A stretch of DNA of 64,000 bases, taken from assembly GCA_964016885.1 (NCBI GenBank), contig OZ024743.1, forward strand, positions 61,504,001 to 61,568,000, in the 5' to 3' direction. Made by a program: the position numbers and the translations under genes. This stretch comes from Eledone cirrhosa. Taxonomy: Eukaryota. Positions 26,860 to 61,512 of the stretch are shown piece after piece (positions within the stretch are counted from its first letter, which is position 1; the number at the start of each line of letters is the position of its first letter). The notes under the pieces were generated by a model. That model did no database searches, was not told the origin of the DNA, and saw nothing but the letters and a program-made list of their open reading frames with translations.

Positions 26860-29800
26860 GTCACAAACCAAGCAAAAAGATTGCAGAGACCCCGAAGAAC
26901 CATGGGTTTCTGAGGACCCTGTCGCAGATAGAGAGAAAAAGAAAAGAAATTGATAAGTCCTATGTTCTCATAGCGCCACATATGGCGATGCTAAGCCGTA
27001 TCCTCAAGGAGGAGAAAAACAAAGAGAAAGGAGGAGAAAAAGAAAAGGAAGAAAGCACAAGCACGGACCTGAAAGAAAATGAGATACCCGCCGCCACAGT
27101 CAAGAAGTGAAGGCCGGGCAACCAACAAGCAAACGGTAAAGGTGAGAAGCGAAATCGCCTTCCGAAAGAAAACCAAGCGCAGAGGGACCAGTGGACAACT
27201 GTCCAAAGGAAGAACAGAAAGCACCGAGACACTGGGTGCAAGAAAACCCAAGTAATGTGCAAGTTCTTCAGGAACGGGACCTGTTGGCATGGAGAGACAG
27301 GGATGGGTTGCAGATTCGTCCACCCCAGGTCCCAAACGAACTATGCCCATCCTATTCGCGCAACATGCCTCAGCCAAAGTCAGAACAAGCCGCTCCAGAA
27401 GTATGCTGATGTCGCGTGTGCCCCGCCAACAAGGAGAAGGCACGCACATGCCGACGAGATACAGATGGCAGCAGCAGAGCAGAAAACCTTTTTAGTGATG
27501 GCAGAGAAGATTGTGGGAGAGCTGACCTCGCTGCATCGTTTCCAGAGCCAGGGTCACCCACATCAGCACTCGAGACCACCACACTTAAGGGACCCAGAGT
27601 GGCCACCGCTGACACCAGACAGCCATTACTGGCACCACAAAAGTCACACCAGTACTACTGCTGAATGTCAGAGGCCTGGTGAAACTTAGTAAAATGAGTA
27701 AAATTTCCTACCTGGGAGACTTAGCCATAAGCAATCAAGCATTATGCATGGCACTAACCGAGCAGTATAGCAGATGCAGAAATACATATACCGAAATATA
27801 TTGTATTTCGTTCGGAGAGGAAAGGGAGAACTCATGGTGGGGTTGCTCTGTATATCCGTGAAGATGTCACACCAATTGTACTGTTGACACATTCAAACTC
27901 AGTCTGTGACACACTGATAGTACATATGAAGCAATTACTGACAGTAATATGTGTCACATATCGGCCGCCCTATGCCCCCAGTCATGAGGGTAAATTTGAG
28001 GATAGCCTGAGTAGGATAGAAGAGGTCCTTGACAAACTGGTCCAGGGTCTCAACATTCTACTTCTGGGAGACTTAAACCTGCCAAAAGTAAAATGGCCTG
28101 TGGGCCACCTCCTCCCTGGAATGACGTCAATAGAACAGAGACAGAAGGAATCCCTGCTGGCCCTCACGCACAGGCTGTTTATGGAACAAGCAGTACTCCT
28201 CCCAATAAGAGGCGAAAATGTCCTGGAACTCTGTTTTACAAACAACGAAGTGCTTATCCACAATGTAAAGGTGACACCAACAATTTCTCGGATCATAACT
28301 TAGTAAAACTAATGATATGTGGTCCGAGAGAACCAACAGAGACACAACCACCAAGAAGCATCGGGACGTTATCCAGCCTTAACTTCTACAAGGTTAACTG
28401 GAAAAAGATCAAGAGAGAAATCCGGAAGCAAATATGGAGCGAAAACACCGCCACACAAGACACCAACAAACAATTTCAACACTTTATGACAACGATACAC
28501 ACGATATTCAAAAGGTTTGTCCCAGAGAAAAAAGCAAACAGACACAAAAATCTTATTCCCAGAGATAGGAAAATCCTTATGAGACGTAGAACCAAGCTCT
28601 CAAACCAGCTGAATGCACAAGAAAACAAAAATAAGAATGAATCCTATTTGTAACGTGCGCTACTTGACACTGAGATTGCACTCAAACTTCCCCATGAAAA
28701 TGAGAGGGCAAAGAAAGAAAGCAGGGCCATAGAAAATGTTAAAACAAACTCTAAAGCCCTCTTTAAATTTGCAAAAGAAACTGCCTCGGTACACTGCAAG
28801 ATTGGGCCACTCTTCCATACAGACGGTTCATTAACCGAGAATCCCCAAGAGATATGCGAAATACTGAACGAACACTACAAAAGTGCGTTCACATGTCTAC
28901 TGAGGCACATGCAAATAACAAAGCCAGAGGAGTTCTTCGATGCCACAACACTACATGAAGAAATAGCGACCATCAACCACATAGACATAACGGAAGAGGA
29001 TGTGGTTTACGCCATAGATAAAATTAGAACAGACTCAGCTGCTGGACCTGATGGATTCCCAGCAGTCCTCTTAAAAACATGTAAGCGGGTCTTAGCAACT
29101 CCACTGAAGATGCTCTTCAGAAGCTCCTTGGCTAGCGGTATACTACCCAGGGAGCTGAAAGAAGGCACAATATTCCCTATCCATAAAGGAGGTAGCAGAG
29201 CGGAGGCCAGTCTCCCTGACGTCGCATATCAGTAAGGTCATGGAGCGAGTCGTCAGAAAGAAATAGATCACTTTCCTCGAGACTAGCACGCAGCATGGCT
29301 TCCGCTCAGGAAGAAGCTGCCTTACACAGCTGCTACATCACTACGACTGGGTACTGAAACAACTGTTAGACAGCTCACATGTAGACGTGATATATCTTGA
29401 CTTTACGAAGGCCTTTGACAGGCTCGACCACGGAATGATATGTCACAAACTACACGGACTCGGCATAAGTGGTAAAGTAGGTGAGTGGCTGCATGACTTC
29501 TTAAAGGAGAGAAGCCAGACAGTCGCAGTAAACGGGGCCCTCACAAAGGAAACATCAATAACAAGTGGGGTGCCCCAGGAGACAGTCCTGGGACCACTAC
29601 TGTTTTTGGCGGCTCTCTCAGACATGCCCTCTGTAGTACATACAACAACATCCCTCACTAGCTATGCTGATGACACTAAGGTAGCACAGGCAATAAAAAA
29701 ACCGGCTGACGCTGCCCTTTTACAACAAGATCTGGATGCCATATACAAATGGGCGGAAGAAAACAACATGCAGTTTAATGCTGGCAAATTCCAAGTCCTA

Positions 29801-30620
29801 CAATGTAAACCTGCAAACACAAATACAGTACAACACAGTTACGCAGGACCAGGAAGGACCGATATCCCTGTGTCAAAATCGATACGAGACCTGGTTATAG
29901 ACATGTGCGATGATGCATCTTTTTCCTCACACATTATGAAAGTGGCGCCGTGCAGACGACTCGCTGGCTGAATCTTGAGGACTTTCCGGACAAGAGACCG
30001 AGACACCATGTTGACACTCTGGAGGACATTTGTCCTAAGCCGCCTGGACTATTGCTCCCAGTTGTGGTCACCCCATAGTGTCAAACTAACCACGGAGCTT
30101 GAGGCAATCCAGCGAAGCTACACCAACAGGATTGCCACGATGAAGGAGATAAGCTACTGGGAGAGGCTAAAAGAACTGAACCTCTACTCCTTGGAACGAA
30201 GACGGAGAGATACGTAGTGATCTACATGTGGAAAATCCTGGAGGGACTAGCACCAAACTTTGGTATTGGGAGCTGGACCAACCGTCGAACAGGACGTTAC
30301 TGTGTGGTGCCAAAGGTGCCATCTTCCACATCTAGAATAAGGAGCAGATATTGCAATAGTCAGGGATTCAAGGGCACTTAACTCTTCAACAAGCTGCTGA
30401 GGGATCTGAGAGATCTGCATAGTGTGAAGGTGGATGTCTTCAAGAAACACTCGAAACCTTGCTATCCAGGATCCCGGATGAGACCACAGCAAGGCACGAG
30501 GGAAACCTAAGGGCAGCAGCAACAAACTCCCTCTTACACCAGTGGCCAACCAACACAGGCTGGAGATAAAATATGTAGCAACAAGGGCGGTGCCCCAGCA
30601 TGGTTGGAACAGGTAAAAGA
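26857..30620 (+). mobile_element. CR1/L2-group LINE: ORF1 remnant with CCCH finger plus APE-RT ORF2, frameshifted
   Basis: CKFFRNGTCWHG..CRFVHP; YRPP, LLGDLN, SDHNL; AAGPDG, QHGFR, IYLDFTKAFD, GVPQ.TVLGPLLF, YADD, LDYCSQLWSP, LYSLERRR. Flanked by (TA)n. Confidence 0.9.
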
Positions 30621-30876
30621 GTAAAAGATATATATATATAAATTAGAATTGATGCTCTGAAATATCGATATATATATGAATGTATATATAGTGTATTTTG
30701 CAATACACTGTATGCTTAATTAAATATATATATATGTATATATACTTATATATACACATATATATATACATATATATATATATATGTATACAGTCTTCAA
30801 ATTTATTATTATTACTATATATATATACTAATAATAATATAGTAATAATAATAACAATATCAGCCTCCCCAAGTAT

Positions 30877-30922
30877 AACAATATTTGTTTCGACACAGGA
30901 TTTCATATAAAAAACCTTGCAA

Positions 30923-30978
<56 letters not shown>

Positions 30979-31043
30979 GACGGCGATGAATTTGTTTTGC
31001 AAGGTTTTTTTATATGAAATCCTGTGTCGAAACAAATATTGTT
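30877..31043. repeat. ~51-bp inverted repeat around a (TA)n spacer, carrying an HHR 3' half
   Basis: Arms aacaatatttgtttcgacac...gcaaaacaa and its reverse complement; gtc-GAAA-caa-ata-ttg-TT. Confidence 0.75.
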
Positions 31044-31361
31044 GATATTGTTGTAATAATATTGCCAGAAATAATAACATAACACACTCACTATTTGGTT
31101 GGTTTTCGCGTCTGCATCTTTTATATCTCCACAGTTAATTTATTTGGCAATCAATGTTTAACATTGACTGACCATCGGTTAAAAAATACAGATATAAATA
31201 TATATATATAGTCTAACAAAGTTCTTTCGTTGCACATCTTCTGCAACATCATCAGTGGTACTATTATCATGTTCCCTCCTATTGTATTGTATTGTAATGT
31301 TCACGCCATTTTTATTTTATTTTATAGCTAGTGACACACTGTCGTATATATATATATATAT

Positions 31362-31760
31362 AAAGAACTAAGTGACATAGTCACTACTTTAAAATGATAG
31401 CGCAAGGTCTTAAAAATGTTTTTAATTAAACATACGGTATATTACCAAATATACTATACATCGCTACTTCAGAGCACCAATCCTAATTTTTTATTTTTGC
31501 TGGACCGATAATCGCTCTGTTTAATCAGTTCCTGATTATTACTGGAATTCTATAAGAATCCATCATCTATAATTTTCGGCAGAGGTCGGGTGTACGTTGC
31601 TCTGAGGAACACCAACAGTGTGAAACAGAATCCGTCAGCTTCTCTCCCTTCCTTTGTCAAAAAAGAAGTAAGTGACATAGTCAATACTTTAAAATGATTG
31701 CGCAAGCTTTTCAAAATTGTTTTAATTAAACATACGTTATATTACAAAATATACTATACA
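31362..31760 (+). mobile_element. ORF-less 300-nt monomer plus 98-bp terminal direct repeat, with a hammerhead, embedded in (TA)n
   Basis: 31362-31460 is similar to 31662-31760. HHR at 31599-31639. Confidence 0.85.
31599..31639 (+). ncRNA. Minimal type I hammerhead ribozyme
   Basis: gct-CTGAGGA-acac-caaca-gtgt-GAAA-c-agaatcc-g-TC^-agc. Confidence 0.8.
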
Positions 31761-31764
31761 TACA

Positions 31765-31819
<55 letters not shown>

Positions 31820-33429
31820 TAAAAAAACGAAAAATCAGTGATGCATCTGGACTCAGTTTATTGCGTGTTACAATTGTTTCGCCGGCAGGTAGCTCGAGAC
31901 ATGATCACTGTATGGATCTGGCTTATTCTACGGCTGTTGTTTTTCTACGTCAATTGTGTAGTTGTTCTCCTCTCTGCCACTCTCTATCACTCACAGGTTT
32001 GTGTGTGCTGGACCGCCATCGGTTCCGACCATGAGTGTTCCCATTGTTTGATCAATGTAACAGCCTACACGTGAAATTAAGGTGCATGTGGCTGAGTATT
32101 AACATAGTACTCAGGGAGCTGCATCTTGACATACTGTGTCACAATTTTCGGCCTTTTAATCAGATGTTGGTTTATAGTGCAAGTAGTTGAGAGTTCCACA
32201 AACTCGATTCAATGTAATACAACGTGTGACAAAATTGGCCGGCCCTCCGAATTCTAACAATAATTAAAGTAGCAGCATTCCTGCGACAATTAATCAGTAT
32301 ACATTAAAAAAACATTATACATGACAAAAAGTACATTACTAGAAATCTCATATGTTATAAAATAAATAGGATGGGTTGGGGTCTCAATATGTAAATTAAA
32401 CGACTAATTCTGTTGTTTTTTAATCAATGGAAACAATCGACAAAAATTACTGCTTATTCCCTCTCCTGCCCGCTTATTCCAAACCTCCCCACCTATTACT
32501 TGGGACCAGGGAATAAGTTAATAACGAACAAAGCTGGTTTCATGAAAATATTTTCATCTGCAAATTTGTAATGAAGTAACAGCCATGTGGTTAGGATTTT
32601 GAACGCACAATCATAAGGTCATGGATTCGATTTCTCGACAAGTGGCACGTTATGTTCTTCAGCAAAATACTTTATTTCACGTCTCTTCTGTTTGCTAAGA
32701 GTTGCGACGCATAGATAATACCAGCAATAAAAAAAACAAGGGAAACACTGCTTCCTAGGTATGATCTGATAATTGGAACTTTTCATTTTATGGTGCCCTA
32801 CCCTCATACATTAGTCAGGGAAATTCCTAGAAAACGTCATGGTTATTATGTTGTACATTCTTTGTTCTTGCTAGAATCTATAGAGCGTCCCTCATATAAT
32901 TTGGGTTTACATTGATGTATGTTTTGATTTTAAACAATTCCAAGGTAAGTTTTTTTTTATTTTTATCATTCGGAAGGAGCTCCTTAGGGGTGGAATGGAA
33001 GTTTCAGAAGGTATCGCTGCCTGTTCTCTACAGCAATGCTTTCGTTATCTTATCCGGGGGTGCAACTGAGATGTAGAGTTTACTTCCTTCCCACACCATT
33101 TTTTTCTTTCTTTTTGTGTTCTTAAAACACAAATCATAAATTAAGAACCAGCCAAGAACTAAAAGTTAATATAATCGCCCAGACGACTTTAAGTTGATAC
33201 TAGAAATCCTTTTACAGATTTGCTTTTTTGAATCTTCATCCTTTAATAAATACTACACTTCGTCGACATTCTGATAAGTTGTTACCTATAAGTTCTACTT
33301 GGACTTCTGTAGTCTAGTGTGGAATATGTAACTTACAAAATTAGGCTGGGTTGTGTGATGCCACATTAAAAGTATCTCCACAGTATATGGCAACTGTACG
33401 CAGTGAAAAGCCACAGCCTCCTTTGAAGA

Positions 33430-34736: not shown

Positions 34737-35550
34737 CATAATATAACTGAATATAAAAGAGAGATAAACACAGATATATACATATATGAGTTTAAATCGT
34801 AAGGGACCAGATTCGCTTTTTTTTCTTAATTCATTCTTTTAAATTGAGTCTGACAAACCCTATTGTTCAAAGTTAGTATTTTTTCATCCTGGTGAATGTG
34901 GTGCCTTATGATTTGAACACATATATGTATATATCTGTGTTTATCTCTCTTTTATATTCAGTTATATTATACAGCCCGGAAAAATTTCTTTCCTTGAGCT
35001 ATTTAATTGTAAGAGACTATTTTGAGTTTCTAACTCAATATATACTTTTGATATATTGGGCTCCTTGAATCTGTAGAGATAATTTAAATGTCGAGTAAAC
35101 TTGGCTACTTATTTAGTAGCATACGTTTTGCGAGACACGCTGGGCACTGGATGCAATGTGCGTTATTTTATATACACACACCATTCAGTCTTCTGAGATA
35201 CTTAGAAGTGAAGGGTTTGCTAATTTCCACACCCACTGAAGAGAAATGGAAATGGTAATTCCCTGTCACTAAATTGCGAAACAGCATTACCGAAAGCTGT
35301 CTGGGTGTCTGATAGTTATCGCAATTTCGGTATGTATATTTTTTTCTTAATTTATTCTTTTAAATTGAGTCTGACAAACCCTATTGTTCATAGTTAGTAT
35401 TTTTTCCACCCTAGCGAATCTGGTCCCTTACGATTTGAACACATATATGTATATATCTGTGTTTATCTCTCTTTTATATTTAATTATATTATACGACCCG
35501 GAAAAATTTCTTTCCTTGAGCTATTTGATTGTAAGAGACTATTTTGAGTT
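34737..35550 (+). mobile_element. ORF-less PLE-type element: 5' inverted segment, ~210-bp direct repeats (period about 520) and a hammerhead
   Basis: 34820-35028 is similar to 35341-35550. 34737-34815 is the reverse complement of about 35414-35492. (TA)n on both sides. Confidence 0.85.
35229..35308 (+). ncRNA. Canonical type I hammerhead ribozyme
   Basis: acaccca-CTGAAGA-gaaat...attgc-GAAA-cagc...gctg-TC^-tgggtgt (7-bp stem I). Confidence 0.85.
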
Positions 35551-35850: not shown

Positions 35851-35976
35851 GAGAGAGAAACAGGACTGTCGATTACACCACTTTGTGTTTTCCGAGAATA
35901 AGTGAGATAGTCAATATTTTAAAATTCATCGCGAATGGTCTTCGAAATGTTTTTGATTAAGCATACAGTATATTAT

Positions 35977-36100
<124 letters not shown>

Positions 36101-36404: not shown

Positions 36405-36977
36405 GAATGGTAAAATGTACAATGTAAATACCCTTAAGTGGGGTTGTTGGGGAAGATAGAGTAGAAAAGGAAGAGAGAAAAGTAGGGAAGAGGGAGAGAG
36501 AAAGAAAGATATGCAGGGGTTGGAGAAGTAGGAGAGAGTGGCTTGTAGATATCTTAATCAAAATGTTATGGTAGGTTACTTTTATACTGGTTACTTTTGG
36601 AGAGATGCGTTGATAGTTAAGGTCGGAATTATTTATTACCCCAGAGGGCAGGTTCATAGATGTTGAGAGGGAGGTAGGCCAAAGGCGAGAGAGAGAGAGT
36701 GTAATGGATGTAGAGAGAGAGAGGTAGAGAGGGGACAGACGAAGTTTGTGTGGTGAGTGAGCTTTGGGTTTGTAGTAGTAATCTAGGAATTGCACTGAGT
36801 TACCATGTATAGTGATAAGCAGTGTATTGTCTTGTAGTGTGGGGGGAAGAGAAGGTTGTTAGCTAGAAAGCGGTGTTATAGTTACGGGTTCGAATGTTAA
36901 GTTATTTTATAGTGAGAGAATTTAGCTTTTAGTTTGTGGTTGCAGTATAATGATCGTTCAATCAATATATATATATA

Positions 36978-37342
36978 TAAATGAAGGAATGAAAAATGGC
37001 GTGCTACGTTGTTGCGAATATGATACATATGAATTTAAAAATAGAGCAAGAAACCAGGACTATCCGTCATCAGTGATCTTCTGGCTATCATCGGTATTTC
37101 TTCGCATTAAAGACCAGACACCCCAAGCCATAAGTTTGTAAAATATGTATATATATATATATATGTATATGTATATACATATTTTACAAACTTATGGCTT
37201 GGGGTGTCTGGTCTTTAATGCGAAGAAATACCGATGATAGCCAGAAGATCACTGATGACGGATAGTCCTGGTTTCTTGCTCTATTTTTAAATTCATGTGT
37301 ATCACATTCGCAACAACGCAGCACGCCATTTTTCATTCCTTC

Positions 37343-37345
<3 letters not shown>
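36978..37345. repeat. ~170-bp-arm fold-back palindrome with a TA-rich centre
   Basis: Arms about 36978-37150 / 37175-37345. Confidence 0.9.
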
Positions 37346-37378
<33 letters not shown>

Positions 37379-39477: not shown

Positions 39478-42660
<3,183 letters not shown>

Positions 42661-48645: not shown

Positions 48646-51600
48646 AAACATTGTGTACAACAACAATCTAATAAAAACACAAGGGCCTAACTTCACCCAG
48701 GCAGGGGATTTCCCCCACCTCAAAATGATTAAGGCCCCACAGGACACCTATAAAACTTTAAAAAACAATTTTAAAGAGGACGTGGGTCCCCCCTGCGTCG
48801 GGCCCATTAACCGCGTCCTCCTGAAAAAAACTATCCCACCCCTTCCCCAAACACCCACACAACTCCAAGCTCCCCAACCACACAACACACTGATGCCCCT
48901 ACACTTCCACAAACCACCACCCCACCCAACAACCCATCCCCCACCCTAATGGAAATTGTGCAGCCCGATACCCGGGACGCAGAGAGGTAAGTGCCTTTTC
49001 TCTTCACCACCAACATGGCTATGCTAAGAGTAGGCTGTTTAAATGCGCGTGGCCTGGGCTCAACTTGGAAGCAAGCAATGCTTCTAAATGACCTCAGGTC
49101 ACAACGTATAGATGTGATGGTTATTTGCGAGGCCCGGATCAGCAACGTGCGACAACTGGCCCCCACCTTTGATGACTTTGAGATGCACGCATCTCTCTGT
49201 CAGCCCGGAGGTGGGGGTGGAGTTGTCATTCTGCTGCAAAAACATCTGGGTCTCGCAACACAGATGGTACATTTGGACCCGGAGGGTCGACTAGTGGTTC
49301 TGGACCTTGTGTGGTAAAGGCGGAGCGTTTAGGTTGGTAGCCGCCTACGGCCCTTTCGGGTCAATGCGGCCGGACTTCTTCCATCGTCTGGAGATTTTTC
49401 TAGGGACGTTCCGCTCCTTGCTATTAGTGGAGGACTGGAATGGTATCCTAGATGCACGCTGGGACTACGTAGGGGCCTGTCCCGATAGAGAGGGGTGTAA
49501 TAGCCTCAAAGGGTTAATCGGTCGATTTAACCTGGCCGATAGATATCGACTAGATTTTCCGACTGCGCCAACCTGGACTTGGGCAAATCGTAGCGGAACA
49601 TCTAGGTCGTACCTAGATAGGTTCTTAGTTAGAATTAAGGATAAGGACTTTTTAAGTTGTCCAAAAATGCGCATGGTTGGCTATTCAGACCACAAATTAG
49701 TGACCTGCATGGTCAACCTTGACAGAACTCATAGACAGGGACCCGGTTACTGGAAGCTCAACTTGTCCTTACCGGCAAGTAAGGCTTACAGGAACCGGAT
49801 TAGCACTTTAGTTAAGGAGCGGTTGACGGGCGCCATCGTCAACAGCAGGTGGTGGGGATCTCTCAAAAGAGAGATTAGAGTAGTCTCTATAGAATTTAGT
49901 AAGGAGTTAGCCTCCAATAGAAATAGGAAGGAAAGGGAGTTGGTAGATAGTGTAGAAGAGGCAATTAGAAGCGGCGACGTGGCCAGAGTGCTAGCGCCGA
50001 GAACGGCCCTGGGCCAGTTCTTCGACGCGAAACACGAAGGCTGCATCGTCCGAAGCAAAATACGTGCTCTGGGAAACGCGGGGACCAAAGCTGTTAGCTG
50101 GGCCCGCGTGACAGAAGCCAAAAGAGGGAGCAGATCCACTATCCGGTCTTTGCGAGACCAGGATGGACGTGTAATCCTTGAACCTAAGCAGATGTGCGAG
50201 GCTTTTCAAAAGCACTTTGCCGAATTGTTCGGAAGGGGCGGGGGGCGGTTGGGGACGTGGACTTCGGTCCATACCTCGACGGCCTGCCGCGTCTCTCGGA
50301 CAGGGAGGCGAAGTCCTGCGAGGAGCCGATTTCAGCCGCTGAGATAGAGGACGTGCTGAGCCAATGCGGCAAACGCAAATCCCCGGGTCTCGATGGTCTT
50401 CCATACGAACTATATCTAGCTATGCCGGACTTGTTCCCCGAACTCCTCGGGGCGGTCTACTGCAACTGGCGACAGAACGGGAGAATTCCCTGTGCTGTGA
50501 CCAAGGGCGTAGTCACGCTAGTGAGGAAGGACGAGAACAAAGGGGACGATATAAATAATTTCAGGCCCATAACTCTGCTAAATACAGAGTTACAGATTTT
50601 GGCCAAGGTGCTAGCAAAGAGGTTGGCGCTTGTCGTGGGCAACCTGGTGGGAGATGCGCAGACATGTGCTATCCCGTCCAGGTCCATCCACGATAACCTC
50701 CACCTCATGCGATACATCATAGAGAGGGTTGGGAACGAACCCGGCTTTGGTGGGGCCCTGATCAACTTGGATCAATCTAAGGCATTCGATAGGGTCGACC
50801 ATGGTTACCTGGATGCGGTGCTAGCGGCGGCAGGCTTCGGACCCGTTTTCAAGGGCTGGATCAATGCCATGCAGAGCAGCCGCATCTGCTCTAGGGTCAA
50901 GGTGAACGGCTACCTCTCGGAGCCGTTCGAAATCGCGTGGTCCATCCGACAGGGGTGCCCTCTCTCCTCCCTTCTGTATGTAGTGACTCTAGAGCCACTG
51001 CTGCGGAAGTTGGAGTTGTTGCAGGGCATCCCGTTGGAACCGGGATTGCGGAAAGCGGTGTCAGCCTACGCCGATGACGTAACAGTAATGGTGTCGACGG
51101 CCTCGGAAATCGGGGCGATCGGCACCTTACTGGAGGAGTACGAAAGGTTTACAGGGGCTAAGCTGAACCGGGACAAGTCGATCGGTCTGCAACTCGGCAC
51201 GTGGAGGGGCAGATCGATGCCCTCCGATGGCGTCGTCGGGCGGTGGACGGAGGGCCCGGTGAAATTGCTCGGGGTCTGGTTCGGACCAGACCTCCAGGTG
51301 GAGAAGAACTGGGGTGAGGTGACGAGCAGGGTGTTTGCACTGACCCAGAAGTGGGCCGAGTGCAAACTGTCCCTGAAAGGTCGGGCGGAGGTGGCGAACA
51401 CTTATATAGCGTCTGTCATCTACTACCGCCTGACCGTGGTGCCTTGCCCAAGGGAAACGCTCGCCAAAATGGAGCGCGCACTCTTCCAATTCCTTTGGAA
51501 GAAGCGGGCTCCTATGGTGAGGAGATCCATCTGCTGTCAACACCCTTCGAAAGGAGGGCTGGGGATGCCGTGGCTGATGATACGTAAACACGCATTAAGG

Positions 51601-52711
51601 CTACGGCACCTTCAGGTATTCCTCTCCGGTCAACCGGTGTGAGCCCCGTTTGTGAGGCGAGCCTTTCCCAGACTCGTCTCACTCACCGAGCTGCAATCCT
51701 GGGTCAAGCAAAGACCGAGAAAACTGGGCGCCTGGCACACCGAGTGTGCCCAGGCGCTCACGGCTCTCTGGCAGGCGGACCCGGCTGTCAGTGGAGAATC
51801 CACCTCGTCATTCTATAGAGGGCTGGCGGTTAGCAGGTGCGACGACGCCCTCGGAGAAGCCCTAGGCATGGAGGAAGACGAACTGGCCAACCTGTTCGGT
51901 AGGACATTCAGCCCGGGACCCATGGATAACTTCCAGAAGTCCCTGGCCTGGCAATGCTACAGAAGGGCTCTGCCCGTTCGAGAAAGGCTCTACAGACACG
52001 GGCGCCCGGGTAGGGACCCATCGAAAAAGGTCTGTCCCAGATGCGTGTGCGACGAGGAAACCGTTGCACACGCATTGGTACACTGCTCGGGCATTGCCGA
52101 TCTGTGGGGCTATGCCAAACAACTGCTGTCAAGGGTGGGACCGATCCGGTTGACCACCGAGCCTATTGTAACGATCAAGCCGCCTCCCCTCTTCAAAAAC
52201 GAAGGAGAGGCGGTGTTTCTGTGCGTAATAGCCATGGCGAAAGAGGTTGTATGGTGGACGCGTCTGAAAGGACTGAGGTCAGACACCTTTCTCTCTGGCC
52301 AACAACTGGTCCGTTTCTTCCGATATCATTTCGGAAGAAGGATCAGGATGGAGAGAGAGGTGCTGCACCCCAGCCGTTTCTATGAAAGATGGGTGAAAGT
52401 GGCGAGAATGGCCCGTGTGAATGGGCCTTCACTCTACATCAGACTATAGGTGAGGAAGATGAAAGACCAAGGGAGCACCCCTTCTCTGTGCTCCTGAGGA
52501 GAAGGGTTGCACACTTTTTTCGGGGGTGTGTGCGACCCCCCAAGGCGCCTTCTCTCTATTGAGGACTTTGTTATAAATTTTATTTTTTGTTATATTTTAT
52601 TTTATTTTTATATATTGTTATTGCCTCCTCCTTATTGAGGACGCCTTGTTTTGTAAACTCCCCCCATTGTACTTGTCCCACTTTTGATGCCCTGGTGGCA
52701 AATAAAAGAAA
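48646..52711 (+). mobile_element. Tx1/L1-clade LINE ORF2 (APE-RT-zinc knuckle), 5'-truncated, few disablements
   Basis: CLNARGL, SYLDRF, SDHK, GPGYWKLN, KSPGLDG, FRPITLLN, LDQSKAFDRV, IRQGCPLS, AYADD, CPRC..ETVAHALVHC. AATAAA at 52701. (TCTA)n on both sides. Confidence 0.93.
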
Positions 52712-56684: not shown

Positions 56685-56850
56685 CTATTTTAGGCACAAG
56701 ACCAGCAATTACCCAGTACATTACTGGTACTTTGTTTTATCGACCCCGTAAGGATGAAAGGCAAAGTTAACCTCGGCAGGATTTGAACTCAGATCGTAAA
56801 GGGACGTAACTGTGCTGGAAAGCATGTCCGACCCTCTACCGATACTGCCA
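56685..56850 (-). mobile_element. SINE family A copy just upstream of the Helitron ORF
   Basis: aggcacaag..actggtactttgttttatcgaccccgtaaggatgaaaggcaaagttaacctcggcaggatttgaactcag. Confidence 0.8.
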
Positions 56851-56866
56851 ATTCACTTCAGTTATA

Positions 56867-59800
56867 ATGCCCCCCCAAAAAAGAGATGCTCACTTGGTCG
56901 TAAAACGGTGTCTGCAGCTAAAAAGAAAAGAAGACGGTTGAATGAGTCGCAGGAGGAAACTGAATTGCAATTGTCACAAAGTGCTTTACGTTCAGCAAAT
57001 AGAAGAGCTGCTGAAACCGACGACCAGCGTAGTGAGCGTCTAGCCAGCAATACATCTTACTATACTTCGTCGCGTGCTAAGCTTAGGGATTTAGACCGTT
57101 CTATACGTAATTCCCGGAATGCTCTGGCTTCTGCCGCTGCTAGGGCTACCGAAAATGAACAGCAAAAATCAATTCGTAATTCCAGTAATGCTGTGGCTAC
57201 TGTCGCTGCTAGAGCCGAAGAATCACAAAACAATCGTAGTATTAGACTAGAAAAGAACAATCGGCGCAAAGAAACTGCCCGGGGCATAAAAAGTCCAAAC
57301 AATTCATATTGGCTTTTAAAAGCTTTTAATTATGATCCAACACTTAACCTCTCAATGCGGTCTGACATCCAGACTGGGAATATGAGTTTAACTTGCAAGT
57401 TCTGTAGTTCAAATAAGTGGGCTGGAGAATCACCTGGAATGTGCTGCTCCAATGGCAAGGTTAATTTACTCCCCCTAGAGGACGCACCGCAGCCTTTGAA
57501 AGAACTTCTTACTGGCACAACTCCTAGGTCAAAAGATTTTCTTGAACTCATCAAAAAGTACAATTGTGCCATTCAGATGATCTCTTTCGGGGCACGCGTT
57601 GTCAAAGAAGAAGGGTGGATGCCCACATTTAAAATTCAGGGACAGATATAACATCTAATTGGATCACTCGAGCCTCAAGAAACGGAAAAGTCCGCGTTTC
57701 TCCAAATCTACTTTATAACTGACTAAATTAGACAGGCTGACATGCGTATTTCTATTATTCCTAAGTCGAACGGCGAGAAAAGTAAATCTGTTGACTAAGA
57801 CATACTTCTCGGTCTTCAACGCATGCTTCATGAAAACAACAGCTACGCCCAGAGCTTCAAATATGCCTTGGAATCAACACCTGTACCCAACTTCAACATC
57901 GTTATTGATGCATACTCACCGATATAACGCCCCCGCATGCAATGAAGTAGCCGTTGTTCTCCATGGAGATCAGCATAAAAAAGGGACATTGTCATTAAAA
58001 GTCGGGACGATACGCTGCAGAGGATTTGTGAAACGCATCGGTCATACGACAGCCTACCATATCCACTGCCTTTTGTTTATGGGGAAGACGGATAACATTT
58101 CGGTATTCCTCAAAGCAAGTCAAACAATTCTGACGGGACGTCAAACAATCCTGACGAGACGTTAAACAATCCTGACGAGACGTCAAACAATCCTGACGAG
58201 ACGTCAAATAAAATCGTATCCTGTATGGATTTTTATTCCTACCGCTTCATGATCAGACAGAATAGTTTTAATCATATTCATTGATCATGAGATCTTTTCC
58301 ATCAGTTTGCAGTTGATATGGCTGCAAAAATGGAGTCTAAAAGGTTATGCTTCATTCAGACGCATCAGAAACAGTTGCATTCTGAATTTTACATTCACCT
58401 CCGTGATGGCATAAGGAATGATGCACATCTGCGGAACCTTGGAAAGGTTTGTATCCTTCCCTCTAACTACGTTGGGGGGCCCCGATACGTGCACGAAAGA
58501 ACCCAGGATGCCATGACGTTTGTGCGCCATTATGGTCACCCAGATCTGTTCATTACATTCACGTGTAATCCGAAATCGGTTGAGATAACCCGTGAATTTT
58601 TTCCTGGGCAAAATTATTCGAACAGACATGACCTCATTGCCAGAGTGTTCAGACTGAAACTGACTAAACTCATGGCTTTAATCAAAAAGGGTCAGGTATT
58701 TGGGGCTGTAAAATGTGACATGTTCACCGTCGAATGGCAAAAACGAGGGCTGCTCACATTTTGATTTGGTTAGCTGATAAAATCAATTCAAATCCCATAG
58801 ACAGTTTCATTTCAGCTGAAATCCCTAACCCAGCAACTGACCAGGAATTACATGACATCGTCAAAGCTAACATATTCATGGTCCGTGTGTGTCGGGTCCT
58901 ACTGAGCATCACACGTGTCTGAAAGGGGGGGGGGGGGTCGTGCAGAAAGGGATACCCAAAAAAATTTGTTGACCAGACTCAGACTGGTGGCGATGGGTAC
59001 TCCCTGTACAGGCGGAGACGGCCCTAGAACGGTGGCTTCACCACAACAGAAAAGGGAGGTCATGTCGACAATAGATGGGAAGTCCCTTACTGCCCGCTTC
59101 TCTTGAAGATGTTCAACGCCCACATCAACGTTGAGTTTTGCAACTCCGTCAAGTCTATAAAATACATATGCAAATATGTAAATAAGGGCTCTGATGCCGC
59201 AATGTTTGCATTTCAAGCTGAAAATAGCAGGGACGAGATCACAGAATACCTGGCGGGGCGGTACATCAGTAGCAATGAAACTTTTTGGCGCTTATTTGGT
59301 TTCCCCCCTACACCAACGGCACCCCGCCATCGTACAGCTTGCGGTACATTTGGAAAATGGGCAAAGGGTTTACTTTACGGACCAAACCGCCGCCAAGCTG
59401 GTTGCCGATCCGAAAGAGACCACTCTGACAGGTTTCTTCAAACTTTGCCAGTTCGATACATTTGCGCAAACAATTGTGCACCCCCAGGTTCCATCCGACT
59501 TTATATGGTCGAAAAACACTTGGGTGCGAAGAAAGTCAGGTCAGGCTGTTGAAAGACATCCTGGTGTAAAATTTGACAGCTGTCTTGGAAGGGTTTACAC
59601 TGTGCCCCCAAGTCAGCATGAGTGCTTTCATCTCCGCCTTCTTCTGCATGAAGTTGTAGGCCCACAAAGTTTTCAGGACCTCAAAACTGTTGATGTAGAA
59701 ATATCTGATACGTACCGGGAAGCCTGCTTTAAACGTGGTCTTTTGGAAGATGATTCGCAATGGGATTCCACTTTAGCAGAGGGTGCTTTGATGAAATCAC

Positions 59801-61512
59801 CTAAAGGTCTACGGGAACTCTTTGTCATTTTGCTTCAAAAGTGTGAATTGGATGATCCCAAATCTTTATGAGTCAAGTACAGAGACTTCATGTCTGAGGA
59901 TTCCTGCACCTGGCTCACCTGCAGTATCCTTCAGTGGAAGTTGCTTACAGCGACATTATCTACAACAGGGCACTCATTGATATCGAGGACGCCCTCCTTG
60001 ACATGGGTGGGAGTGAGTTGGCGACGTATGGCTTGCCGTCAACCGTCAGAGATGAAGCTAACACGTTGGCTCCGGATTTGTTGCGGGAAACAGCATATGA
60101 CATCGAATCTATTTCCCAATACTTAGAGGAAAAGGAGCCCAAACTTCTGTCGGACCAAAGGTTGGCCTATTTAACTATCATTGACGCGCTTCAAAATCAG
60201 ACTGGGGGTATTTACTTTCTCGATGCTCCTGGAGGTACCAGAAAAACTTTTGTAACAAAATTTATTCTCGCTAAGATTCGTCAGGAGAAAAAATTGTGTT
60301 GGCCGTTGCATCGTCCGGGATCGCTGCTACTTTGCTGCCGGGAGGCAGGACAGCACATTCAACCTTTAAACTCCCCTTGGATTTAGTAAAAACTGAGACA
60401 CCAACATACAATATCAGCAAGAGTTCACACGAAACTCTCGTTCTCAAAATATGTTGCCTCATTGTTTAGGATTAGTGCGCAATGGCACACAAGGGTGCTC
60501 TTGAGGCATTGGACAGGACCCTGAAAGACATTAGGGATTATACGACTCCTATGGGTGGCGTAACCCTTCTGCTATCAGGGGATTTCCGGCAAACGCTGCC
60601 TGTCATCTCCAAATGGACGACAAAAGCTGATGAAGTAGTGCGTGCCTGCCTTAATTCGTCCATGTTGTGGCCCCAGGTGAAGACTTTGTACATGAGCACA
60701 AATATGCGTGCTCATTTGCATGGTGACAACATGTCTGCAGCATTTGCTCAGAACATTTTAGCACTTGGTGAGACCAAGGTCCCTGTGGATGACAAGGGCG
60801 GCATAGCAATCGACTCTCTGTGCAACATTGTGAGCAGCCCCTCTGACCTTTGGGAAGCAGTTTTTCCTAATGTCTCATGTAATTTAAAACCTTCGATTGG
60901 CTCAGCGAAAGAGCCATCCTTGCTCCAAAAAATGCCATGGTTAATTTTATTAACGAGCAGCTGATTAAGAAGATTCCCGGTAAAGAGCACATCTTCAAAT
61001 CTATCGACCGGACGTCAGATCCCGACGATGTTGTTAATTATGCGGTTGAGTTATTAAATTCCCTTGAGCCCCCAGGGTTCCCTCCTCACATTCTTAAGCT
61101 TGGGGTGGGCTGTCTCATTATGCTAATAAGGAACTTGCGTCCACCAAAGCACTGCAATGGTACTCGCATGGTCGTCAAGTCACTGACGCCCCACTTGATT
61201 GAGTCCACTATTGTAACGGGGTGCGGGAGAGGGGAGAATGTTTTCATTCCAAGGACGAAGCGTTTGCCCTTGGCGTCAGATATCCCGTTCGATTTCCAGT
61301 GATCCCAATTCCCGATGAGACCATGTTTTGCTATGTCCATTAACAAGTCACAAGGGCAAACATTGTCGCTGGCGGGCATCCATTTGGGGGAGCCATGCTT
61401 CCCCCATGGCCAACTTTATGTTGCCTGTTCCCGCGTAGGGAGCAGGAATGCACTTTTTGCCTACACTACTCAAGGGATTACACGCAATATCGTCTACAAA
61501 GAGGTGCTATAG
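56867..61512 (+). mobile_element. Helitron Rep-Pif1 helicase (RepHel), frameshifted pseudogene
   Basis: Zn finger CKFC..MCCSNGKV; PDLFITFTCNP; HUH EWQKRGL/AHILIW; KYICKYVNKG; DAPGGTRKT; GDFRQTLPV; CNGTR; AMSINKSQGQT; HGQLYVACSRV. Confidence 0.95.
58119..58208. repeat. 21-bp tandem repeat x4 inside the Helitron ORF
   Basis: Units gtcaaacaatcctgacgagac with no spacers. Confidence 0.85.

Follow-up and report, generated by a model that had tools for sequence, protein, structure and literature searches.

An ORF-less hammerhead repeat of about 316 nt in Eledone cirrhosa, probably copied in trans into (TA)n by a PLE protein

A decayed hammerhead insertion between (TA)n tracts

The window considered here, a stretch of 64,000 nucleotides from Eledone cirrhosa (contig OZ024743.1, positions 61,504,001 to 61,568,000), contains a short insertion lodged between two (TA)n tracts (Table 1). 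Direct repeats of 100 nt (31362-31461 and 31662-31761; 90% identity, spacing 300) surround a hammerhead built from the motifs CUGAGGA, ACAC/GUGU in stem II, GAAA and GUC. The repeats, the (TA)n on both sides, the 41-nt ribozyme and its predicted cut were all found where the original prediction had placed them. The claim that the element lacks a coding region also held, as no ORF of 120 aa or more overlaps it and, in three natural copies of the family with several units, ATG ORFs reach at most 28-45 aa. Judged on sequence, the element is a member of a family of the metazoan non-LTR retrozyme type, with cleavage and a circular RNA as predicted properties.

Table 1. Positions within the window of the insertion, its parts and two related fragments.
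Feature	Position	Strand	Remarks
Whole insertion	31362..31769	+	single arm, subfamily 1, about 1.3 monomers, 5′-truncated, short 3′ site (A) end
First unit, 300 nt	31362..31661	+	family monomer of about 316 nt less 16 nt near 31460
Second, partial unit	31662..31769	+	hairpin run up to site A; putative RT entry region
(TA)n target, left	31345..31361	.	sequence
(TA)n target, right	31770..31816	.	sequence
Type I hammerhead core, 41 nt	31599..31639	+	sequence; predicted cut 31636/31637; T>C at 31633
Extended stem I (13+5+3 bp)	31573..31663	+	compensatory changes between subfamilies
Short separate insertion, subfamily-3-like	30637..30724	-	ends at long 3′ site (B) in (TA)n
Short diverged separate insertion, same lineage	35851..35980	+	runs into (TA)59

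Several details of the insertion had to be redrawn. Its start had been predicted correctly, while its end lies at 31769, the family's short 3′ end, and not at 31760. The monomer had been taken as 300 nt long; the family unit measures about 316 nt (roughly 311-321), and the shorter period of the window copy results from a 16-nt deletion in the first unit, with loss of the site-A hairpin. Terminal redundancy had likewise been read as a feature of the element. The copy has no fixed redundancy, since 5′ ends in the family are scattered and 3′ ends fall at two internal sites, and the 100 nt or so seen twice here reflect a truncation point at which the cDNA stopped.

Apart from its deletion, the first unit differs from the per-column majority of subfamily 1 by 14 substitutions, and the second by 10 differences over 109 sites. 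Contigs from three further sets, of unspecified kind and from a single sample, confirmed both the 316-nt family and the private changes of the window copy. One of the changes, the T>C transition, breaks a pair in stem III, and an Rfam search with the window hammerhead gave no match at the gathering score or at E<=10. Metazoan non-LTR retrozymes are called active when they carry two ribozymes; the window copy has one, with a mismatched stem III. Because this single hammerhead is damaged, no monomer would be released from the copy by double cleavage, and the locus is an ordinary decayed member, likely a dead-end offspring, of the 316-nt family.

The two related fragments that had been noted in the window are present with different extents, the first beginning at 30637 rather than 30686 and the second matching from about 35851 rather than 35899. 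By sequence, both look nearer to another subfamily than to that of the main insertion. Other repeats are plentiful in the surroundings. A further family on the minus strand (31817-32270) ends at the same (TA)n, also flanks loci L006 and L078, and is joined head-to-head to a subfamily-3 arm in L257. Two perfect 38-nt inverted arms enclose (TA)n at 30877-31043, and the end of this structure is met again next to (TA)n in 28 of the loci retrieved, as well as at the 5′ junction of L380. A Helitron remnant with Helitron_like_N and PIF1 domains in broken frames occupies 56800-60964. Reverse transcriptase fragments lie at 335-1753 (a weak match), 27758-29971 (LINE-type, with an APE endonuclease), 39965-41404 and 50188-52449 (LINE-type, with zf-RVT). 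The window also holds a duplication with a 521-522-nt period and 92-97% identity (34818-35550) and a 198-bp palindrome of 97% identity (36965-37360).

The 316-nt family and its predicted RNA

The 3.0-Gb, (TA)n-rich genome holds thousands of ORF-less units of this kind, in three close subfamilies and a distant fourth. A search with a 400-nt query returned 3076 first-look candidates, and three exact 28-31-mers gave 293, 1676 and 1918 matches, which count units rather than insertions and are lower bounds; reversed controls gave 0. The family is therefore not a product of chance. Subfamily 1, that of the window, has the core CUGAGGA and lies about 5% from its column majority; subfamily 2 has CUGAUGA and lies about 4% away; and subfamily 3 has UUGAUAA, a length of 320 nt and best matches that are 96-97% alike. 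Monomers range from 311 to 321 nt with a GC content of 0.32-0.38. The fourth family, at about 50% identity, keeps a period of some 320 nt, the hammerhead, the same run of hairpins and similar ends.

The largest tandem arrays comprise 14 units on C1 and about 41 on C2. The longer one (G000:C2:208895066-208908284; L246, L222 and L247) is homogenised, belongs to subfamily 3 and has nine diagnostic changes common to its units, several of which lie in the ribozyme; it is a candidate source locus or satellite. Tandem duplication after insertion, or higher-order repeats, can be seen at L177, L194, L224 and L225; L225, together with L250 and L251 (C1:268.92-268.93 Mb), forms a higher-order repeat of subfamily-3 units of about 1.16 kb. 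At L389 (1483-2110), four units with a period of about 164 nt constitute a deletion derivative that lacks the ribozyme, keeps a correct site B end and is fused to PLE family H. Across its genome copies the family is thus ORF-less, periodic at about 316 nt, equipped with a type I hammerhead and found in tandem arrays, in line with the call of a retrozyme-like element. The copies are not simply the 3′ ends of long PLEs devoid of periodicity, the outcome that the original prediction had named as fatal to itself.

The core and stems of the ribozyme are supported by covariation between copies. Over 54 ribozyme regions, 94% of cells pair under the named structure, as against 48-59% when it is slid along the alignment, and double-sided changes occur in 10 of 30 pairs. 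Between subfamilies, changes compensate each other in the extended stem I and in four hairpins upstream. Among 28 terminal regions, three hairpins precede site A, with one subfamily-level compensated pair in each, and site A itself sits at the loop of an AC-rich hairpin. Such covariation represents a few subfamily-level events rather than many independent ones, and kinship inflates the shuffle test, so it was the pattern that was weighed and not the scores. At position 3-8 the same 54 rows have C-G in 47 cases, U-A in 4 and U-G in 3; a C3-G8 pair has been documented through a rescue mutant, according to the accessible text of PMC11167929.

When folded as circles, five natural cut-to-cut monomers gave predicted z values of -4.3 to -6.7 (60 shuffles each), and the window unit only -1.8 (60 shuffles). 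The extended stem I would clamp a cleaved monomer at both ends. The sequence of stem III is nearly palindromic, with a 1-nt loop in subfamily 2, in keeping with the activity as dimers that the available portion of PMC4209133 describes for hammerheads of metazoans. Several contigs skip 80-94 nt within 31571-31669, amounting to the whole extended stem I hairpin, and the site-A hairpin (12-16 nt) is deleted in several copies. Both kinds of loss suggest that reverse transcriptase skipped over folded template.

Insertion anatomy, template and PLE partners

Insertions of the family end at one of two sites, either site A (CATTCAT, then TA) or site B (CTAAT, then TA), which are 34-39 nt apart and lie about 134 and 168 nt past the ribozyme cut. 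The 3′ junctions are usually within (TA)n. Among 155 insertions, the first pattern matches in order of position along C1 and C2 and thus a sample biased to well-preserved copies, 92 are head-to-head, 62 are single and 1 is of another form. The arms of the head-to-head copies are unequal in length, and their ends pair as follows: 60 combine A with B, 2 have A+A, 2 have B+B and 28 include a non-canonical end, which makes A+B the rule in 60 of 64 clean pairs. A hand-scored set gave A+B in 37/44 (p=2e-6 against independent ends). Of 268 insertions, 4 have candidate target site duplications of 9-14 bp, and two of these are clear. In the others, among them the window copy, any duplication is hidden in (TA)n.

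The 5′ ends, by comparison, are scattered. Nine lie within 5 nt of the ribozyme cut where 10.2 are expected, and without an excess there, insertions that begin at the cut could be ruled out. Single arms have their 5′ ends in TA in 28/62 cases, against a background of 11% in the window. These insertions carry the PLE signature of partial tandems, an inverted arm and a one-sided tail of 30-40 nt, and so the element does not stand apart from PLEs as had been supposed. In the portions available of PMC8557442 and PMC3846280, the PLE pattern is described as a 30-40-nt tail on one arm together with inverted 5′-truncated copies. The accessible text of PMC11167929 adds that a PLE in vitro nicks both strands and starts reverse transcription at two internal points in an AC-rich stem-loop.

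Considering these features together, we regard the window element as a decayed insertion of an ORF-less hammerhead family of about 316 nt, likely copied in trans into (TA)n by a PLE protein that primes at two internal sites of the RNA (probability about 0.82). Loci of two or more units would be transcribed, and the GIY-YIG nuclease of a PLE would nick both strands of AT-rich DNA. Each nick would then prime cDNA within the RNA, with site A used by one nick and site B by the other. The reverse transcriptase would pass the ribozyme junction and stop at random, leaving 0.2 to several units per arm, after which the two cDNA ends could join head-to-head or, as presumably in the window, one arm could be resolved alone. 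Some arrays may enlarge later by unequal exchange. The likeliest helpers would be Neptune/Nematis-type families, N2 foremost, with the shape of the RNA recognised more than its sequence. The family thereby yields predictions at the level of nucleotides (two priming sites, a hairpin run and N2 as candidate helper) that are suited to the existing in vitro PLE assay.

That reverse transcription passed the ribozyme junction, as had been proposed from the window copy, is supported: 182 of 281 arm alignments extend across the cut, and 5′ ends do not accumulate there (some arms were counted in two registers, and the 3′-end histogram of this set was not used). The ends of the insertions are set by the two internal sites and not by the ribozyme. 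Given these crossings, a cleaved but unligated monomer was not the main template, and the template must have been continuous across the cut site. Units also resemble their neighbours. Derived alleles are shared two to three times as often within a locus (0.17-0.29) as between loci (0.07-0.10), and a three-site haplotype present at 45% frequency is concordant, both arms included, in 55 of 57 multi-unit insertions, a count in which a few overlapping loci may figure twice. It follows that each insertion usually came from one source type. The concordance fits a circle as well as an uncut transcript made from a homogenised array.

For a self-cleaved, re-ligated monomer circle as template we would accept an even wager, and an uncut multimer transcript falls only somewhat short of that. 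The circle is favoured by the extended stem I, which would hold the cleaved ends, and by the young insertions L153 and L175, in which private variants are common to all units and both arms. Two insertions with mixed haplotypes (arms L146 and L166) tell against a single circle, since one circle cannot yield two haplotypes, and the ribozyme-less array at L389 points the same way.

These observations bear on the strongest competing account, in which a PLE mobilises the family with no circle at all, the template being an uncut read-through multimer and the hammerhead a protein-binding or regulatory fold, or one that rarely cleaves. Its chances are appreciable, if a little below half. The homogenised arrays on C1 and C2 would be at hand as linear templates; hammerhead mutants left PLE insertion in vitro unimpaired, as the available part of PMC11167929 reports; and 8/9 predicted Xenopus retrozyme dimers did not cleave, as stated in the accessible text of a preprint (10.64898/2026.07.22.740005). 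The account is harder to reconcile with the private variants of L153 and L175, and with a catalytic core and a 21-bp stem I that are kept with compensation across three subfamilies while nothing is encoded. Moreover, two ribozymes within one arm occur in just 15 of 155 insertions, so that few loci would have had to supply the linear templates.

Physical links between the repeat and PLEs were also found. The genome has 10596 GIY-YIG candidates, of which 150 were scored, and among the families recognised (N2, E, F, G, A and H, all working labels) N2 retains intact frames with RT plus GIY-YIG of 844 and 938 codons. The CX4CxxC linker of Neptune/Nematis is present in N2, E, F, G and A, and H has none over the stretch tested. 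In 314 insertions with 117 open junctions, 8 junctions had a PLE match and 5 of these are head-to-head fusions to ORF-bearing PLE arms, with N2 as the partner in L146, L190 and L221, E in L314 and H in L389. All five involve subfamily 3, and four of the partners have the Neptune/Nematis-type linker; for subfamily 1, 0 of 29 open junctions matched any of six PLE reference families. A short inverted segment lies at the junction of each fusion. The two arms are not separated by (TA)n, and the one from the PLE extends to that element's own 3′ end; in none of the five was the rest of the same PLE copy found beyond that end.

The autonomous N2 shows the same pairing of short and long ends in this genome, and in the three N2 fusions the A end of the repeat always accompanies the long end of N2. 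The partner in L146 comprises 1.8 kb of N2 ORF sequence and a further arm in inverted orientation. An earlier idea that N2 shares the site-A motif proved wrong, as only the long ends look alike. As the fusion partners span three families, one of which (H) is without the Neptune linker, no single helper is pinned down. The fusions were counted with no formal null, and some might possibly represent a later PLE insertion with deletion, L314 above all, where the PLE arm matches its reference at 99% and the repeat arm matches its own at 95-96%. Insertions made from two families bear on the inverted structures of PLEs in general, as their arms can derive from different RNAs.

Several other junctions were set aside. 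L168 is nested in H, L400 adjoins the 3′ end of E itself and L301 has a TA-rich match; L291, at 74% to family F and with a non-canonical end of its own, was not counted; and L032, at first taken as a GIY-YIG ORF with a monomer, is a nested insertion in (TA)n at the end of another PLE. A search aimed at extra N2 fusions returned mostly ordinary subfamily-3 loci. Fusions of another sort occur at L426 and L427, where a second hammerhead repeat of about 500 nt is joined head-to-head to subfamily 1 (one case) and to subfamily 3. This second family, likely a further retrozyme, stands in tandem at L072 (8300-9900) with a period of about 490-510 nt. Near PLE ORFs in L061-L080 there are at least eight distinct hammerhead-like motifs, several with U3-A8 cores.

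It is conceivable, though doubtful, that the family represents an ancient, viroid-like lineage of RNA circles of about 320 nt, parasitic on several PLE families that would recognise its structure with no kinship of sequence, and that one PLE complex could carry two RNAs. If so, the mixed insertions would reflect priming of one RNA at the short site and of the other at the long site, so that a retrozyme circle could enter one strand of a target and a PLE mRNA the other.

The remaining alternatives are much less probable. The monomer might be the pseudo-LTR of an autonomous PLE, and its copies 5′-truncated PLE ends or internal-deletion derivatives. Precedent exists in Xenopus, where 24/57 retrozyme families are homologous to known elements, nearly all of them PLE termini, according to the accessible text of the preprint by Li et al. 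Here, 50 PLE loci, a small sample of the 10596 candidates, were searched by BLAST and two nhmmer profiles, and none has a terminal repeat similar to the monomer, the only matches being nested copies of the 316-nt family and its distant fourth family. Furthermore, copies continue upstream of their 3′ end into another monomer and not into an ORF, and the period of about 320 nt persists in the fourth family despite its divergence. We consider this origin improbable for the copies as they stand; a remote PLE ancestry of the monomer is possible and agrees with trans-mobilisation by a PLE protein.

A satellite or MITE-like DNA repeat, spread at the DNA level with the ribozyme as a passenger, is very improbable: head-to-head copies do resemble inverted-repeat elements and post-insertion duplication is real, but fixed 3′ and random 5′ ends, unequal arms, A/B pairing and covariation tolerant of G-U pairs point to an RNA intermediate, so that this mode is largely refuted for dispersal and holds only for array growth. 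Equally remote is SINE-like mobilisation by a LINE (RTE, L1/Tx1 or CR1), since despite the common LINE RT fragments of the window and the apparent LINE RT sequence adjoining the 5′ junctions of L008 and L206, the family has neither poly(A) nor a LINE-derived tail, its identified fusions involve PLEs and other hammerhead repeats, and its two internal 3′ ends, with each arm's own 3′ end in the target, are unlike LINE twin priming.

Comparison with known systems

Literature listings outside subscription journals, Repbase and Dfam gave no description of the 316-nt family or of its fusions; similar elements or the family itself may appear in the supplements of PMC7229834 and PMC13282606. The closest relatives in kind are the metazoan non-LTR retrozymes (Cervera and de la Pena 2020, PMC7229834), including the 350-390-bp repeats of Mytilus. 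As far as that paper's accessible text goes, they share with the present family a short monomer of low GC (32-38%), a type I hammerhead, the lack of ORF and LTR, a range from dimers to long arrays, a self-paired predicted circle, target site duplications of more than 4 bp where visible, and PLEs in the same genome. The 316-nt family thus combines the traits by which retrozymes are recognised, namely a type I hammerhead in a unit of 150-450 bp, tandem copies, no ORF, GC below 50% and a duplication above 4 bp. It differs from the retrozymes so described in that most of its copies are partial or head-to-head insertions dispersed in (TA)n, with 3′ ends fixed at two sites. The vertebrate retrozymes of Li, Clavereau and Pollet (2026, 10.64898/2026.07.22.740005) have in common the proposed class of helper, the occurrence as monomers, dimers and multimers, and a similar length; in the available text, the case for the helper is made from co-occurrence and pLTR similarity, and here it is made from insertion anatomy and fusions to PLE arms.

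With EN+ PLEs (Neptune/Nematis, with a CX2-5CxxC linker and a (TA)n bias, and Penelope/Poseidon; PMC8557442, PMC3846280 and PMC11167929, as accessible), the family shares partial tandems, an inverted 5′-truncated arm, a 30-40-nt tail on one arm, a hammerhead upstream of the 3′ end, AT-rich targets and internal priming. Unlike them, it has no RT or EN ORF and the entire element is about 316 nt long; it lacks the combined RT and GIY-YIG ORF of an autonomous member, and its partial tandems, inverted arm, one-sided tail and AT-rich target are those of a non-autonomous one. Chlamys elements such as MRC1 are likewise ORF-less passengers of PLEs with multicopy head-to-tail insertions, but in the portion of PMC8557442 at hand they generally match the 3′ end of an autonomous partner and most are without a hammerhead, whereas the present family has a hammerhead and no visible similarity to a partner. 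Plant LTR retrozymes, with a type III hammerhead, fixed LTRs and a 4-bp duplication, are different again from a family with a type I hammerhead, variable redundancy and a longer duplication.

A link between retrozymes and PLEs has already been proposed. PMC7229834, in its accessible text, calls PLEs a strong candidate for retrozyme mobilisation, and the preprint 10.64898/2026.07.22.740005, in the part available, describes the mechanism as still to be elucidated. To that proposal, the present family adds a rule for the tails of its paired arms and physical fusions with PLEs.
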